DNA of 64,000 nt from Fimbriimonadia bacterium (lineage in GTDB: Bacteria > Armatimonadota > Fimbriimonadia > Fimbriimonadales > JABRVX01). The stretch lies in assembly GCA_041483895.1 (NCBI GenBank), contig JBGPGO010000007.1, forward strand, positions 146,582-210,581, read 5' to 3'. Shown piece by piece: positions 55,441 to 62,373 of this stretch; positions within the stretch are counted from its first letter, which is position 1, and every line of letters starts with the position of its first letter. Below the pieces are notes generated by a model that saw only the letters and a list, made by a program, of their open reading frames with translations, was not told where the DNA came from and did not search any database. The position numbers and the translations under genes were made by a program.

Positions 55441-56346
55441 CTATTGATCGAACAGGCCGAGTGTCTGCTTCTGGCTCTCAAAGTCTATCTCAATGAGCTG
55501 CAGCGGCTGCAAGGCTTCCCGCAAATCTACAACCTTTGCGCCGTGCGATCGCAACTCGGTTTCGGCCCGCGCGCCCTCTATGACAAAAACTTTTCGGCCC
55601 TCTTTCAACGCATCCGTGGCACCTTGCCACGTGCCGCCGGTGCCGGGATCGCACTCGACAATCAGCGTCGCCTCCGCGCAGGCATAAGCCAATCGGTTGC
55701 GAGCCATCGCGTTCCCCACGTCGAATCCCGCCTCTGGATGCACTTCCGACACGAGACAGAGATCGCCTTCGTCCAGCACGATATGAATCCCGGATCGGCG
55801 CGTCGCGCGCAACAGGCTGTCGGAAAGAATCCCCACCACCTTGCCGCCCGCCTCCAACGCGGCCTGCATTGCCGCCGAATCCACTCCGCGGGCGCCGCCG
55901 GAGACCACGCACAGTTCCGCCAATACGCAGGAGCGAGCTACCTCCGCCGCCTGCTCGAGCCGCTCCTCCGACGCATTCCGAGAGCCAACGATCGCAAATC
56001 CTGAGAGACTGAGGAGGCAGATGTCTCCTGCGCCATATAGGAGGGCCGGCGCACGATTCTTCAACCGTGTAAATGCTACGGGAAAGTCGGAATCTCGGAC
56101 GGATCGGACCCATATCCCCGCGTCGCTCCACCGCTCCAACTGTTCGAACACGTCTCGCGCCTGCAAGGCCCGAAATCGCTCCGGATCGATGGGGCACCCA
56201 GCGAGATCGGCGGGCAAATCTTCCTCCGGGCCCAACCACGCGGCTAGTTCCAGGACCTCGCGATTGGACAGCGGCCGGCAGTCGTCCACGAGCCACCGCG
56301 CGGTGAGTTGAACCGCCAATTGCGTGAACGGAGACATTTCAGCCAT
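55441..56346 (-). CDS. DprA/Smf-like DNA-processing protein
   Basis: PALLYGAGD, AIVGSR, VVSGGARGVD, AMARNRLAY and GGTW.GA. The start overlaps the stop of the RecQ-PRTase remnant (ATGGCTGA). Confidence 0.9.
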   Translation of the reverse strand: MAEMSPFTQLAVQLTARWLVDDCRPLSNREVLELAAWLGPEEDLPADLAGCPIDPERFRALQARDVFEQLERWSDAGIWVRSVRDSDFPVAFTRLKNRAPALLYGAGDICLLSLSGFAIVGSRNASEERLEQAAEVARSCVLAELCVVSGGARGVDSAAMQAALEAGGKVVGILSDSLLRATRRSGIHIVLDEGDLCLVSEVHPEAGFDVGNAMARNRLAYACAEATLIVECDPGTGGTWQGATDALKEGRKVFVIEGARAETELRSHGAKVVDLREALQPLQLIEIDFESQKQTLGLFDQ

Positions 56347-56557
56347 CGGCGTGAGCCACCGCCGTCGAAGTAAGCGCAAAGGGGTATACCTCCGGGCAGC
56401 CCGCCTGCCGGAGCATGGCCCCGATCACCGTAAAGGTCCATCCCGAATCCACCATGTCGTCAACCAACAACACCGGCTCCTTTCTCATCGCAGCCAATTC
56501 GAACACACCGTCCAGATTTCTCGCCTGCTGAAAGCTGTTGTGCATTGTTTCGAGCTT
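56339..56557 (-). pseudogene. C-terminal remnant of a RecQ-family helicase with phosphoribosyltransferase domain
   Basis: TMHNSFQQARNLDGVF...PVLLVDDMVDSGWTFTV...LRQAG...VYPFAL, containing the PRPP-binding motif. Confidence 0.8.
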
Positions 56558-56653
56558 GATTTTTTCACGTCCAGAGGTCGCGGGGGTCCAACAAATGGTA
56601 GTCGGCGGGCAACCAACGAGGACACATCATCAGGGCCATTGTCGGGAAATGCT

Positions 56654-57568
56654 CTAGGTACGCGCATCGCTATCCATGCTCTCCGTAATGCCATCTATGA
56701 CGGCCTTCCAGTTTGGTAGACAAGGGTTGCTAGGGGTGATCGATTTAAGGTAGGCGTAGTACCCAGTAAGTTCTAATACTCTGGGAACAAATCGCCGGGG
56801 ATCGTGGTTAGCCTGAAAGAACACAGCGCGAAGCCTGAGCCTCAAATAGCGGGGCAAATTTGCAGACTCGTTTACAACTAGCCCGGTGACAAGCTGACAA
56901 TTCGTCTTATAGTTCACCCGGAATTTGGCCAAATTGATCAGAAACCCTTCGTCTGCGATAATTTCTGAGACGCGCTGGAAAGAACTGCGGCTGAAACCCT
57001 TTTCACCGGAAATTGTTATGTCATCGCAATAGCGCGTGTAGCCATATCCTCGCTTACTGCAATATCCCACAAGCCTCCCGTCAAGTTTCCGGCAAATCAA
57101 GTTTGCAATGTCCGGAGATGTTGGCGCGCCCTGCGGTAGTCTTCCCCTGTATGTGCAAATTCTTGTAAAGGTGGAGGCAATTTCAGCTGAGTATCCTAAT
57201 GACCGGTACAATTCAAAGACCCGATTGCTGCTGATTGTTGGGAAAAAATCCTTGAGGTCGATGTTTGCAACGAAGTCCCTACCTGTATGCTGATCGGCGT
57301 TCTTCAGAACACTGCATCGCGGTCGAAAGGCCGTGGCGGCTGGTGAGATTTGAATCTGGCGGAGCACATATACGAGAATCCACCGCTGGAAGCCTTTAAG
57401 AACCTTGCTTGGAGCAGCAATCTTCCTGTATCCTCTGCCTCCCCGCTTCGGTAGTCGAAAAACTTTGTAGTGACGATCCGCATTTGCACGAAGGTCGTAA
57501 ACTGTACCTGTCGTGATGCCAAGGTACTGAGAGAGTTGTACGACGTCGGCTACTGCAATCTGGGCCAT
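56654..57568 (-). CDS. Retron reverse transcriptase
   Basis: PKRGG.G.RKI.AP, NADQH (retron region X NAxxH), DLKDFF, LPQGAPTSP, YTRYCDD and VTGLVVN (region Y VTG). An alternative GTG start lies at 57577. Confidence 0.95.
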   Translation of the reverse strand: MAQIAVADVVQLSQYLGITTGTVYDLRANADRHYKVFRLPKRGGRGYRKIAAPSKVLKGFQRWILVYVLRQIQISPAATAFRPRCSVLKNADQHTGRDFVANIDLKDFFPTISSNRVFELYRSLGYSAEIASTFTRICTYRGRLPQGAPTSPDIANLICRKLDGRLVGYCSKRGYGYTRYCDDITISGEKGFSRSSFQRVSEIIADEGFLINLAKFRVNYKTNCQLVTGLVVNESANLPRYLRLRLRAVFFQANHDPRRFVPRVLELTGYYAYLKSITPSNPCLPNWKAVIDGITESMDSDART

Positions 57569-57585
57569 TCTTCTCACTAAACCAT

Positions 57586-57750
57586 GGGCGGATGCTTTGT
57601 GACAACTCTTCGCCGGTCCGGATCTGGTGTATTAAATGCAGGAATCTGCAGCCGAATACACCAGTTCCCGGACTGATAATGTTATCATCGTATCCAGAGT
57701 GACGATTGCGTCACCCGTCACTGCCGAGGCAGTTCAAAGACATACCGCCC
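57586..57750 (-). ncRNA. Retron msr-msd non-coding RNA
   Basis: Terminal imperfect inverted repeats at 57586-57599 and 57735-57750, two short msr-like hairpins (57720-57733, 57699-57714) and a long msd-like hairpin (57616-57673), immediately 5' of the RT. Confidence 0.85.
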
Positions 57751-57756
57751 GTCTGC

Positions 57757-57786
57757 AATTTACCCTTCGTCAGAGCTAATGCGCAA
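57757..57786 (-). promoter_or_regulatory. Candidate sigma70-like promoter for the ncRNA-RT transcript
   Basis: TTGCGC, 18-bp spacer, TAAATT on the minus strand. The predicted +1 falls at about 57750, the first base of the terminal repeat. Confidence 0.5.
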
Positions 57787-57796
57787 GTGCGTGGCC

Positions 57797-58618
57797 TCAG
57801 GAGCGGTCGGCGCCTTGGAGCCGCGCATTCAGCACGGCGAGCCTTACTCGTGAAATGTCGAGTGCAGCCGATGGGGAGACGCCTAAGGCGTCGATCGGCA
57901 TTTGCGGCAGATAAGTTTTTTTCTCTTCCTTTATCATCCCTATCTGAAACAGCTTGGTGAGGCTAGGCCGCACGATTTTTTCCGATCCGATGACTTCGCA
58001 GAGTTCGGCGTAACTGATCGGGTGCGACACGTAAATGCCGCACAATGTCACGTATTCCTCGAATGTCAGTGGCTGAAGTAGTCGCGCCGCGCGCTCGGAC
58101 TTCAAGTACCATTGACGGGCGATGCGTAGATCTATATCTGAAAGGACTCGACCCCGTGAAACGGATTGTGCCGGGTCATAGTATATGATGCTATCCTGGT
58201 CGAGGAGTCGGAGCGGGCCATGATTAATGAAGCTGTCCGAATCCCGGAATTTGATCGGATTGAACACAACAAGTTTATCATGCAGCTTGTTATTCAATGC
58301 AAATGCAGTGACTTCAGCGATCGTACCGGCTGAGCCGAGAAATATTACTATCAAATCCGACTCTTCGGCTTTCTTGACTTCAATGGACAAGAGATCGCCT
58401 TTCTTCTTGACCCTCACGTCATCAAGCCCCTCGATCTCTTCGCCCAGGAAGGCATCGCAGCCCATTTTTCGGTTCAGTTCGTGACGCAGCTGGCGGCGCA
58501 AATCTCTGCCGCGAGGTTCGGGCTGAGAACCGCACAAGAACACTTTGAGCCTGCGACCCATTTGCATATGGGCAAACAAGCCGCTCAGGTAGAAGGATTT
58601 CGGGGTGGCGTTATCCAT
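57797..58618 (-). CDS. Retron type II (Eco1/Ec86, St85-like) effector: NDT-like domain plus putative winged helix
   Basis: VFLCG, DLLSIE...AEESDLIVIFLGSAGTIAEVTAF and SFINHGP; C-terminal ISYAELCEVI...LTKLFQIGMI. ATG at 58618 is preferred. Confidence 0.85.
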   Translation of the reverse strand: MDNATPKSFYLSGLFAHMQMGRRLKVFLCGSQPEPRGRDLRRQLRHELNRKMGCDAFLGEEIEGLDDVRVKKKGDLLSIEVKKAEESDLIVIFLGSAGTIAEVTAFALNNKLHDKLVVFNPIKFRDSDSFINHGPLRLLDQDSIIYYDPAQSVSRGRVLSDIDLRIARQWYLKSERAARLLQPLTFEEYVTLCGIYVSHPISYAELCEVIGSEKIVRPSLTKLFQIGMIKEEKKTYLPQMPIDALGVSPSAALDISRVRLAVLNARLQGADRS

Positions 58619-58706
58619 TGGGTTAAGCCTAATTGCCTTCCTGTCGAGTCGCTCCAACGCTAAAGTGGAGTAGATGGTACCCGACCTGTTGACCAACAAT
58701 AGATTT

Positions 58707-58805
58707 TAGTCGGCCCGCCGCCCGGATCGCCTCTTCCTGCCCGGCCCGAAATTCAGCCGTCGGATTTCCGAGCGCCTCTCGAAGCAAATGAACCAGCGAA
58801 GTCAT
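58707..58805 (-). pseudogene. N-terminal remnant of a RecQ-family helicase
   Basis: GGAGG RBS and MTSLVHLLREALGNPTAEFRAGQEEAI (FRxGQxEAI motif 0). Similarity ends before Walker A. Confidence 0.75.
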
Positions 58806-58875: not shown

Positions 58876-61800
58876 TTAAAATCGGAGCGTGTAGTCCACG
58901 GAGCCGACCGTCCAGTTCCTGTCCCGGTCGTTGGGGACCGCATGTTGGTACTGCGTGTCGGCAATCGAGAAGGAGAGCGCGTTCTGAGGATTGACCGTGT
59001 AGGAGTACCGGAGGGAAACCGTATGGCCGATGGTCGAATTGCCGTAGATGTTGGACGACTCCAGCCCATAGCCGACCGACCACAGGTCCAATCCCTTGGG
59101 GTTCTTCATGTTCAACGTCAGGCCGCCTTTGCGAGCGACCTGGCCCTTCGTATCGTCATAGTTGGTTAGGTAGCTGCCGACGATCTCGTTGCGCTTGTCC
59201 AGCCTCATCCCCAGCGCCCAGTTGCTGGTTCCCGTCGGATTGATGATCGTGCCGAAGGGAACGTTTTGCTGCGCCTTTTCCGGGTTGGCGCTCAGATCAT
59301 GGGTGAGCGTCAGGAAGTTGCCCATTTTGTAGTCGAGATGATAGGTACGAATGATCTGCTGAATGTCGCCCGGTAGCGTGCGAATCTTATAGAGAACGTT
59401 GGCGTGGAACGTCTGTTTCGGATCCGGGTTGGTCGTGTAGTTGAATGTTCGATCCACTGCCCGGAAGCCGGATGGAGTCATCGCGCCGCCGTAGCTCCAT
59501 GCGAGCTTGCTCGTGCCCCAATCGGCGGAGAAGCTGCCGGTTTTGTTCTCTGTCTTCCACACCGTGGCTTCCGCAAGGCTCTGATAACCGAATGCGAAGG
59601 TGGCGTTCTTCAGCGGTCCGAAACGGAACGGCTTGGTGTTCTTCAGCCCAAACTGCCCGGTGGCTTTCGTGTTCGTGGCATCGCTTCGATCCTCAACGTA
59701 TCCGCCGGAAAGTTCCAGGTTTCGGAAGGTGGTCTGGCTGATGCTCCAGTTCTGCGTCGCTTTCCCTAGACCCTGGCTGTTGAGCATGCGCGTGTACGAC
59801 CATTGGAATTTGGTACCTTTACCCAGGTCGTATCCGACGCCGTATATTCGGTGCACCTCGTCCGCCCGCTTGTCATCTCGATCGATGGTCTTTTCCGTTA
59901 CAGAAAGGTTCAGGCGCTTGGTGATGTTCCCGGAAATGCCATTTACGTCGGTATGCTCTTTGTTTCCCGCGCTGTCGTCCATGACCAGGTGTTCGGAGAC
60001 CAGTCCCAATCCGCCGAAGGGCGATCCTTCGTATTTCCAATACTGAGTCTGTTTGTCGACGCCTGTCGCTGTCGTTCCGCCGCTTGATTCCCGCTCCGTA
60101 AAGCTTGCCAGTTTCCCGATTTTGCCGAAATCCCGATTGAGGGTAGTCTTCTCGTGCTGGTAATCACTCAAACTAGCGATCGGGGAATCTGCTTTGAGCC
60201 GATCGTTGAGGTGAGTGAACCCAGTGTTCTTGTCCGGCGCCCAGTTGATGAAGAACTTCGTCTGTCCTCGTTCGATGGCCATATCGGGATTGCTCGCCCC
60301 GAATTGGAACAGCTCCGCGGAGAGATTCTTGAGCAGCTTTATCTTCCCGGAAAAATCAAACTGCTTGAACCCGCGCAGTTCGGATAGCAGGCCCGTCTCC
60401 GGGTCAGCCAGATCAGCCGCCCTGGTGAATCCATTGTCCACGTTTCGGAAGTTCGCGAGGAGCTCGTAGTTGCCGCCTTTGAATCCGATGGTTCTTCGGG
60501 TAAAGCCGCCGCCTTCGCCACCGAGCGCCAAGTCCCTTACGCTTATGGTGCCGTTCTTTCCGAGCGCCAATCCCAATGACCACTCGTGGCGAGAAAGGCC
60601 CGTTTCATTCGCATAAAATTTCCGTTCTGATTCGAGCAGGTCGCCGATTCTGCTGAATCCCGCATCGATGCTTTGGTCCAAATAGTTGAACGATATGGTT
60701 TTCGTTGACAGACCGAATCGCTTGCGGTCGATGCCGCCATTCTTACCATCGATCGAATACATGTCGAAGGCCAGCTTGCCGAACTTTTGGTCCAGTGAGA
60801 AGCCTCTATAGTCGCGGGTAAGGCCCGCCTGGCGTACCAAGAACTCCTTGTCTTTCGGTCCGATGGCGTTGTCATCCGACTGGTAGCTTTGGTGGATTTC
60901 GTGGATGGCGGCGTCCTGCTCGTCCGGGCGCAAGTTGCCGAGTCCCGAAAAGCCGGCATCCGCCTGCGTGGAGGTCCAACGAAGACCCCAACCGAGGCCA
61001 TTGAACATCAGGTTGCGGCGGACGAAATCCCCGCCGCTCGTTTCGACCCGATCCTCGGCGAAAGTGTTCCAAACATCCTTGCGCCGCATGAAGTCCAGAA
61101 GCTGGAGCCGGAAACCGCTGCGATGGAAGCCGGTTTCCTTTTGCCACTGGCCGCGCTCGCCTTCCGCCAGGTCGCCGAACCGGGTGAAACCTGTGCCGAT
61201 CGTTTGATCGTAATGCGAAAGCTTCGCGACCTTCGTATCGAGCGAAAGGTTTTGCTGATGGATTTCCCCTCCCGCGTCCCGAATGCTCTTGTCGTCGTAC
61301 TTCAGCAATCCATCTTTGAGAGCCAGCGCCGCGCCCATATTGTCTCGCGTGATGCCCTTTTCCTTTGCCCACTGTTGGGCGTCGGCGTCGTTCAGGTCCT
61401 TGAAACGTGTGAACTGCGGATCAACCCACCGGGAGCTCCATGAAAAGCTGGCCGCGCCTGCCTTGAAATCAAATCCGCGGCGCTCGATGCTTCCCTGCCC
61501 GTCCGTGATGCGGCTGAACAGGCTGCTGAAGTCCGTCGAGCCGGTTCCGTACCCCAGGCTGTAGCCGAGACGGTTGATCCCTTTTTCCTTTTGCCATTGG
61601 TTGACCTGATCTTGGCTCGCTCCTTGTCCGGTGAGCCCTTCAAAGCCATTGAACTTCGCGCCGATGTCGGAATAGTTGACGTTCGCCCGGAAGCCGCCTT
61701 CTTTCAGCGCCAGGTTTTGGTAGATGAACCGATCCATGACGCTCTCCTTCGTCGATCCTTGCTTCGTGTCCGGTGAATTGGGATTGGCGAATGACTTGAC

Positions 61801-62373
61801 GCCCTGCTGAGAGGACATGAAGTAGATGCCGGATAGGCTGGACCCGCCTCCCAGTTGGAAGTTGTTTGCGATTCCATAGGTCATGCGCTGCAAAATGCTT
61901 CCATCTTGCAATCGTTCCGCGCCCATTAGGCCGAACGAAGCCTTAATCGCGCCACCTTGGCCGAAACTAAAAGCGAGCAATGGCTGACCCGAAGACTGAT
62001 TTTGCCCAACCAAAGACGGGTCGTGGCGATAGAGTACCGTGACCGATTCTTGGGATCGGACCGCCCGGACGAAGGTGAGCGTGCCCGACGAATAATCGAT
62101 CTGATAGTCCTGGCCCCTGTGGAGAGTTTTCCCGGCCACGTCCACAGTCTCGGTGCCGGGAACGATGCCGCCGTAGCGAAGGGCGTATCCGAATCCGCTC
62201 CCGTTTCCCGGCAATAGATCGGAGGCGGCGGTTCCGGCCACAGTCGGCGTTGACGGTATGTCTGTGTAGCCGCCACTCCCCTGATTCAGGAAGTCGTCGT
62301 ACCATTGCGCGGCCGCCCGTGGCCCGAAGGCCAAAGGAAGTACTAACGCAAGGACGAGGATCAGTTTCCGCAT
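58876..62373 (-). CDS. Large putative outer-membrane beta-barrel protein with internal repeats
   Basis: Signal peptide, amphipathic beta-strand-rich sequence, C-terminal DYTLRF and a recurring (I/V)DxGFxRxxDL motif. Confidence 0.7.
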   Translation of the reverse strand: MRKLILVLALVLPLAFGPRAAAQWYDDFLNQGSGGYTDIPSTPTVAGTAASDLLPGNGSGFGYALRYGGIVPGTETVDVAGKTLHRGQDYQIDYSSGTLTFVRAVRSQESVTVLYRHDPSLVGQNQSSGQPLLAFSFGQGGAIKASFGLMGAERLQDGSILQRMTYGIANNFQLGGGSSLSGIYFMSSQQGVKSFANPNSPDTKQGSTKESVMDRFIYQNLALKEGGFRANVNYSDIGAKFNGFEGLTGQGASQDQVNQWQKEKGINRLGYSLGYGTGSTDFSSLFSRITDGQGSIERRGFDFKAGAASFSWSSRWVDPQFTRFKDLNDADAQQWAKEKGITRDNMGAALALKDGLLKYDDKSIRDAGGEIHQQNLSLDTKVAKLSHYDQTIGTGFTRFGDLAEGERGQWQKETGFHRSGFRLQLLDFMRRKDVWNTFAEDRVETSGGDFVRRNLMFNGLGWGLRWTSTQADAGFSGLGNLRPDEQDAAIHEIHQSYQSDDNAIGPKDKEFLVRQAGLTRDYRGFSLDQKFGKLAFDMYSIDGKNGGIDRKRFGLSTKTISFNYLDQSIDAGFSRIGDLLESERKFYANETGLSRHEWSLGLALGKNGTISVRDLALGGEGGGFTRRTIGFKGGNYELLANFRNVDNGFTRAADLADPETGLLSELRGFKQFDFSGKIKLLKNLSAELFQFGASNPDMAIERGQTKFFINWAPDKNTGFTHLNDRLKADSPIASLSDYQHEKTTLNRDFGKIGKLASFTERESSGGTTATGVDKQTQYWKYEGSPFGGLGLVSEHLVMDDSAGNKEHTDVNGISGNITKRLNLSVTEKTIDRDDKRADEVHRIYGVGYDLGKGTKFQWSYTRMLNSQGLGKATQNWSISQTTFRNLELSGGYVEDRSDATNTKATGQFGLKNTKPFRFGPLKNATFAFGYQSLAEATVWKTENKTGSFSADWGTSKLAWSYGGAMTPSGFRAVDRTFNYTTNPDPKQTFHANVLYKIRTLPGDIQQIIRTYHLDYKMGNFLTLTHDLSANPEKAQQNVPFGTIINPTGTSNWALGMRLDKRNEIVGSYLTNYDDTKGQVARKGGLTLNMKNPKGLDLWSVGYGLESSNIYGNSTIGHTVSLRYSYTVNPQNALSFSIADTQYQHAVPNDRDRNWTVGSVDYTLRF

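Follow-up and report, generated by a model that had tools for sequence, protein, structure and literature searches.

A probable type II-A3 (Retron-Eco1-like) retron in canonical gene order, seated within a broken psyrT gene

Does a retron whose effector gene stands in front of its non-coding RNA (ncRNA) and reverse transcriptase (RT) gene represent a new arrangement of this type of defence system, or one that is already known? The question is raised by a locus at 58618–56654 on the minus strand of a 64,000-nucleotide (nt) stretch of contig JBGPGO010000007.1 (assembly GCA_041483895.1, positions 146,582 to 210,581), which is referred to below as the window. An earlier sequence-only reading had described the locus as a complete tripartite type II retron with its effector moved to the front and its ncRNA sandwiched between the two genes. 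Our analyses show that the retron is real, complete, apparently intact and otherwise ordinary. The locus is very likely a type II-A3 (Retron-Eco1/Ec86-like) tripartite anti-phage retron in the canonical order effector, msr-msd ncRNA, RT, an assignment made because of the effector and the nearest relatives of the RT. The claim of a complete tripartite type II retron is borne out by both proteins, which score above their NCBIfam cut-offs, by PADLOC models, by Ec86 structures, and by a covariance model and covariation for the ncRNA. The one unexpected element, and a new side finding, is the site: the retron lies inside a gutted psyrT gene next to an intact psyrA.

The listing of open reading frames (ORFs) gives two minus-strand frames at the locus, one of 300 amino acids (aa) at 58699–57797 and one of 307 aa at 57577–56654, separated by about 220 nt. 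For the first of these, alignment with 18 relatives places the start at the ATG at 58618, and the RcaT-type effector encoded at 57797–58618 is thus 273 aa long, with an NDT-like N-glycosidase domain in its N-terminal part and a helical/winged-helix domain in its C-terminal part. A PADLOC comparison of both ORFs, which the sequence-only reading had proposed as a check, put NDT_II-A on top for the effector and RT_II-A on top for the RT. The effector matches NDT_II-A models only (best PDLC02930, E 4.3e-31) and also passes the NCBIfam model NF038232, ‘retron St85 family effector protein’, with 109.8 bits at a cut-off of 100, in keeping with the NDT-like/winged-helix protein with Eco1-type effector motifs that had been noticed there. 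Its best phmmer match in the PDB is the Ec86 effector (7v9x_C, E 4.8e-14), and BLASTP aligned it with the Ec86 effector of BL21 at 27% identity (273 aa, E 2e-19). No Pfam match was obtained with a Pfam copy from which PF28093 is missing; relatives of the effector carry PF28093 as a precomputed tag.

The NDT-like fold had been named beforehand as the point on which the upstream ORF could fail, and the predicted structure carries it. For the AlphaFold model (mean pLDDT 84.7, pTM 0.83), the top three PDB structure matches are all the Retron-Eco1 effector (Foldseek E ~1e-11), with VIA Z scores of 13.0, 12.8 and 11.6 over 230–233 residues, which is near full length; the large root-mean-square deviation (rmsd) of these superpositions reflects a different domain angle. 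NDT-fold N-glycosidases follow on residues 21–178, namely DNPH1 (Z 11.3, rmsd 3.3, 136 residues aligned for the N-terminal domain), MilB and nucleoside 2′-deoxyribosyltransferases (NDTs). The conserved glutamate at the catalytic position is E102, within GTIAEVTAF, and its counterpart in the alignment is the position changed, relative to the wild-type Eco1 chain, in 8qbl, which is annotated as ‘inactive effector (E106A)’. On the basis of this alignment we propose E102 as the putative catalytic glutamate.

The RT gene is located at 56654–57568 of the same strand. Read from the ATG at 57568 to the stop at 56654 it encodes the 304-aa protein reported before, and an alternative GTG start at 57577 would give 307 aa. 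The NAxxH and VTG signatures that had been pointed out are present as NADQH (aa 90–94, 57301–57287) and VTG (aa 227–229, 56890–56882), with the catalytic YCDD between them (aa 180–183, 57031–57020); NAxxH and VTG mark the retron RT regions X and Y as defined in Mestre 2020. The protein matches Pfam RVT_1 (E 1.5e-17), ranks RT_II-A PDLC02941 first among 68 PADLOC families (E 5.5e-83) and passes the NCBIfam model retron_St85_RT (237.8 bits, cut-off 235). Its best PDB match is the Ec86 RT (E 2e-51, 178 bits), followed among solved RTs by Ec67 (119 bits), Kva2 (107 bits), Ec83 (76 bits) and the Ec78/St85 type (~70 bits). With the Ec86 RT of BL21 it shares 40% identity over 231 aa, and it is a candidate member of the Ec86 clade (Mestre clade 9).

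The third component was sought in the 228-nt gap between the two genes. The gap folds as a whole with a z score of −4.87, and the structured RNA of 165 nt that had been placed just upstream of the RT was recovered at exactly that length at 57586–57750 (minus strand), with a minimum free energy of −77 kcal/mol and a z score of −6.72; none of 200 shuffled sequences folded as well. The predicted structure is closed by a terminal stem of two arms, a1 (57750–57735) and a2 (57599–57586), which encloses msr hairpin 1 (57732–57721), msr hairpin 2 (57716–57697) and a long msd hairpin (57673–57616). The last base of a1, G57735, is conserved and is the candidate branching G. No second copy of the RNA was found upstream of the effector. 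A promoter/terminator scan returned nothing on the minus strand that would account for transcription; a weak TTGCGC-N18-TAAATT was read by eye just before a1.

For comparison, relatives of the effector were collected from genomes (4 loci) and metagenomes (7 loci). Three of these 11 loci (L003, L007 and L012) stop at the effector and one, L006, keeps 75 nt beyond it. The gaps of the relatives (~150–200 nt) fold alike, with a long terminal a1/a2 stem, two small msr hairpins and a variable long msd hairpin of 53–94 nt, and they share a conserved junction, UUUG|GAC, in which a1 ends with the G. The a1/a2 stems and the long msd hairpin were present in 8/8 sequences compared, the sequences of a1 and a2 themselves varying by lineage. 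In one relative, L004, the last part of the effector ORF shares its sequence with the a1 arm and the first hairpin.

A covariance model of a1 and the two msr hairpins, R1, was built from seven relatives with the window sequence excluded. Searched against both strands of the window, R1 matched once, at 57762–57686 of the minus strand (35 bits, E 2.2e-6), and it also detected the truncated L006, on which it had not been trained, at 46 bits. When the 12 msr pairs were followed through nine aligned sequences, all 108 of 108 cells held standard pairs, and compensatory changes on both sides occurred in 5 of the 12 pairs, a level reached by 0 of 500 shuffles; controls with the alignment slid out of register gave 18–62% pairing.

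The gene order was then read from Retron-Eco1 itself. The sequence-only reading took Retron-Eco1 to be ordered ncRNA-RT-effector, which turned out to be wrong: in the E. coli BL21(DE3) genome (NC_012971.2) the effector (877889–878812) comes first, followed by the ncRNA and the RT (879050–879937), with both genes on the same strand. A 180-nt stretch of BL21(DE3) across the effector end and the gap folds into an a1/a2-closed retron RNA (z −8.76) that overlaps the 3′ end of the effector gene, and which we take to be the known msr-msd of Ec86. Within NC_012971.2 875500–881500, the RefSeq annotation includes the effector and the RT of Ec86, with no ncRNA between them. The same order is reflected in the name of an Ec86 construct, ‘pACYC184-effector-ncRNA-rrt’, given in an Ec86 preprint. 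The order in the window is therefore canonical and represents no new architecture.

This bears directly on the proposal that a type II retron here has its effector moved in front, creating a new ncRNA-sandwich architecture. The effector-ncRNA-RT order on which the proposal was built is itself real, but its being native to Retron-Eco1 refutes the idea of a rearrangement; moreover, an effector, a gap and a retron-type RT follow one another in all seven relatives with enough downstream sequence and on two alphaproteobacterial RefSeq plasmids, and in retron types VI, IX, X and XIII, too, the effector gene is described as standing ahead of the ncRNA-RT module. We consider a new architecture here hardly tenable. 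What is new is an additional type II-A3 member in a Chthonomonadales-like host; its gene order was already known.

Another reading that has to be weighed is a Sen2-like toxin-antitoxin retron, in which an intrinsically toxic RcaT forms tetramers or higher oligomers when released and the complex of the RT with multicopy single-stranded DNA (msDNA) is a true antitoxin. NCBIfam does call both proteins of the locus ‘St85 family’, and in a preprint (bioRxiv 10.64898/2026.10.13.758329) RcaTs are reported to split into toxic oligomeric clades and non-toxic dimeric clades. Yet the RT is much nearer to Ec86 (178 bits) than to the St85/Ec78 type (~70 bits), both proteins have their best PADLOC models in common with Ec86, and the gene order and position of the ncRNA are those of Eco1, while Sen2 is arranged msr-msd, orf, RT according to the abstract on a Vibrio mimicus retron. 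Taken together, this makes a Sen2-like system unlikely.

Several observations do weigh against an Eco1-like type II-A3 retron. The score of the RT lies less than 3 bits above its NCBIfam cut-off, and in PADLOC the model RT_XIII ties RT_II-A at 276.7 bits (in two stretches), with RT_III-A nearly as high; the RT by itself is therefore not type-deciding, and it is the effector that decides. The effector in turn is only 27% identical to that of Eco1 and is missing the C-terminal ‘DYRL’ tail present in most close relatives. As to the RNA, the covariation alignment was fitted to model R1, and L008–L010 are near-duplicates among the nine sequences, which reduces these to about five or six independent lineages. 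No Rfam retron family matched around the locus at E ≤ 10; Rfam 15 gave no match to the genuine Ec86 locus either (E ≤ 0.01), and the null result at our locus therefore says little. Methylation motifs such as GATC, searched for by eye, are not shared among the relatives’ msd stems, and a common motif of this kind was dropped as a clue to the trigger. Finally, none of the listed sequencing runs is recorded as RNA.

The analyses show the anatomy of the locus, its family, the gene order, and the conservation and covariation of the RNA; its transcription, the synthesis of msDNA, the assembly of a complex, the trigger and the substrate are inferred by homology from Eco1 and Sen2. The Eco1-like retron probably works as Eco1 does, with the effector held back by the RT-msDNA complex for as long as no phage has altered the msDNA. 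In such a scheme, effector, ncRNA and RT would be made as one transcript, for which the replaced psyrT probably supplies the start signals. The ncRNA would close on itself via a1/a2, and the RT would prime from the 2′-OH of G57735 and copy msd (57673–57616) into a hairpin msDNA. Binding of the RT-msDNA complex to the NDT-like effector would keep the latter inactive until a phage enzyme that modifies or degrades msDNA sets it free. The N-glycosidase of the released effector may then attack NAD+ or nucleotide pools, so that the infected cell would stop supporting the phage.

Parts of this scheme have their counterparts in type II retrons described in two preprints. In one (bioRxiv 10.64898/2026.10.13.758329), the RT-msDNA complex of type II keeps the RcaT effector inactive, phage DNA methyltransferases activate the system, as Dam does on GATC in Sen2 msDNA, and Eco1 shows NAD+ hydrolysis with auto-ADP-ribosylation. 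In the other (bioRxiv 10.1101/2023.08.16.553469), Dcm acting on CCWGG triggers Eco1 and adenine derivatives are depleted.

The composition and distribution of the locus point to its having come from elsewhere, as had been suggested from its visibly AT-rich sequence. The cassette at 56585–58720 has a GC content of 51.4%, compared with a mean of 57.9% for the window (standard deviation 2.5% among sliding windows of equal size); it is the lowest-GC block of its size in the window, and 0.2% of sliding windows are as low. The effector was not found in any of the 40 related genomes searched, and in each relative of the retron that was examined the cassette has other neighbours (succinyl-CoA ligase, melibiase, a CARF-adenosine-deaminase gene, transposases). 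Horizontal acquisition of the compact two-gene cassette is therefore supported by the low GC, the missing effector in the 40 related genomes and the unrelated flanks. In one of the relatives, L002, a metagenome-assembled genome (MAG) of an uncultured bacterium, the retron lies ~1.1 kb downstream of a CARF-adenosine-deaminase-like gene at 746–2314 (PADLOC CARF5--CARF_ADA, E 2.9e-48), which is another defence neighbourhood. As for the host, the earlier suggestion of a probable member of the Armatimonadota agrees with LeuC, whose best named relatives are Chthonomonadales or Armatimonadota MAGs at 73–75% identity, with Bacillota at 72%, a comparison of low resolution.

The site of the retron was identified from what flanks it. 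PsyrTA consists of a RecQ-like helicase-phosphoribosyltransferase (PRTase) toxin, PsyrT, and a DprA-like antitoxin, PsyrA. Upstream of the effector, a 58-codon remnant of the psyrT 5′ end (58629–58805, minus strand) begins with a GGAGG Shine-Dalgarno sequence and an ATG at 58805 and ends with a stop 10 nt ahead of the effector ATG; its PsyrT homology is limited to ~58790–58725. The match to positions 8–48 of the 689 of the PADLOC PsyrT model (E 0.0026) is weak alone, its position and orientation fitting, and tblastn with intact PsyrT proteins from two related genomes found residues 10–30 of 685 at 58790–58725 (59% identity, E 0.007) and residues 63–84 of 734 (E 0.016). Downstream of the RT, the last ~70 codons of psyrT are preserved at 56339–56551 (minus strand) as a 68-codon ORF that carries the phosphoribosyl pyrophosphate (PRPP)-binding loop of the phosphoribosyltransferase domain. 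This 3′ remnant matches positions 622–686 of 689 of the PADLOC model (E 1.4e-22; 618–686, E 2.7e-21, in the search of the whole genome), and tblastn of intact PsyrT against 56551–56342 aligned residues 615–685 of 685 at 48% identity (E 3e-12). The frame upstream of it is closed by two stops.

Next to this remnant stands psyrA (55441–56379, minus strand), the antitoxin gene of PsyrTA. This 312-aa frame, in which the likely start is the ATG at 56346, overlapping the psyrT stop, matches PADLOC PsyrA (E 7e-77) and Pfam DNA_processg_A (E 2.1e-37), and scores as high as the PsyrA of relatives with an intact psyrT. Intact psyrT-psyrA pairs occur in two relatives of the same order, G027 and G033, whose PsyrT proteins are 734 and 685 aa long (E 6e-259 and 2e-252, respectively). 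The rest of the genome from which the window comes yielded no full PsyrT, the other 11 matches being partial, to either the helicase or the PRTase. These findings suggest that a retron cassette of ~2.1 kb (~58720 to 56585) is likely to have replaced ~585 psyrT codons, including the helicase core, and to have spared psyrA. An 18-nt imperfect direct repeat at the junctions (56589–56606 and 58697–58714, 14/18 identical) was considered as a target-site duplication or attachment site and rejected as probably due to chance, since 14 of 500 shuffled sequences and 21 of 500 randomly placed windows reach it.

The arrangement of the retron in psyrT is no assembly artefact, because contigs of four sediment-metagenome runs bridge both junctions (records 4, 21 and 27 at the right junction; records 6, 14, 24 and 31 at the left). 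These contigs show 0 differences, and one of the runs may be the source of the window itself. No contig of the listed sediment runs joins across the retron as a retron-free form would. Contigs from three runs match the window solely at 56436–56475, a 40-nt stretch of the PRPP loop, with lower identity and diverging on both sides; these contigs presumably carry PRTase genes from other inhabitants of the sediments and are not alternative forms of the locus.

A location of this kind raises the question whether the retron is dead or decaying, a passenger in a wrecked defence locus that makes no msDNA and gives no defence. It does sit inside a broken gene, a 95%-identical effector on another contig has an internal gap of 13 residues, and no expression data were found. 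Both ORFs are nevertheless of full length with every catalytic motif kept, the RNA has kept 12/12 msr pairs as well as its a1/a2 stem, and the locus is without a single difference across the contigs of the four runs, which together make decay highly improbable.

A different thought is that the retron has seized the expression signals and toxin slot of PsyrTA and that the retained PsyrA, which binds single-stranded DNA, works with it in a hybrid retron-PsyrA defence. We regard this as a long shot; if it were true, PsyrA might attach to the msDNA or shield it, or it might adjust the release of the effector.

Directly upstream of the psyrT remnant, at 58876–62373, an ORF of 1165 aa with a signal-peptide-like start gave no Pfam match at E ≤ 0.001; its product may be an outer-membrane or surface protein.

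For the Eco1-like retron itself, the value of the finding lies in cataloguing and possibly in the diversity of editing tools, and no concept is changed by it. Together with the relatives found in Planctomycetota, Hydrogenedentes and unclassified MAGs, the locus defines a small environmental sub-clade with a conserved msr of its own. As effector-ncRNA-RT is the native order of Retron-Eco1, it should not be flagged as unusual. Of modest interest is the site, a clear case, assembled independently, of turnover within a defence locus, in which one defence system has apparently overwritten the toxin gene of another and spared the antitoxin.

Among known systems, the closest is Retron-Eco1 (Ec86). 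The two share the effector-ncRNA-RT order with the ncRNA in a gap of ~230 nt, and the BL21(DE3) proteins have the identical best PADLOC models, PDLC02941 and PDLC02930. Their RTs are 40% identical, their effectors have the same two-domain fold (Z 13.0) with the active-site glutamate conserved, and both ncRNAs combine an a1/a2 stem with a pair of msr hairpins and a long hairpin in the msd. They differ in the effectors, which are only 27% identical, and in the sequence of the msr, for which Rfam and R1 show no cross-detection, R1 having been run on loci other than that of BL21. In addition, the a1 of the window does not overlap the effector ORF, whereas the Ec86 RNA does, as is also the case in the relative L004. 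The trigger site of Eco1, CCWGG, is missing from the msd stem of the window as read by eye. Hosts and sites are different as well: Ec86 lies in a P2-like prophage remnant of E. coli, with portal and terminase genes beside it, and the window retron in a broken psyrT of an uncultured Chthonomonadales-like bacterium.

Retron-Sen2 (St85), of type II-A1, shares with the locus the effector family RcaT (an NDT-like and a DNA-binding domain), the NCBIfam St85 names and the general logic of an RT-msDNA complex that restrains the effector. Its RT, however, belongs to another clade (~70 bits for the St85/Ec78 type vs. 178 for Ec86), and its ncRNA lies upstream of the effector, at least as the order is given in the abstract on the Vibrio mimicus retron.

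The plasmids of Phaeobacter inhibens (NZ_CP081236.1) and Thioclava sp. (NZ_CP135445.1) show, in RefSeq annotation, a ‘retron St85 family effector protein’, a gap of 173 and 181 nt, respectively, and an RT, as in the window. In the fold of their gaps, too, an a1/a2 stem is accompanied by a pair of small hairpins and one long hairpin, although the fold of the Phaeobacter gap reaches a z score of only −2.62, and R1 gave no match to the RNAs of either plasmid at E ≤ 1. The effectors of these plasmids are 31–33% identical to that of the window.

PsyrTA, finally, is represented at the locus by the intact psyrA and by the two ends of psyrT in the right place and orientation. A full-length PsyrT with helicase and PRTase is not present; the retron stands in place of ~585 of its codons.

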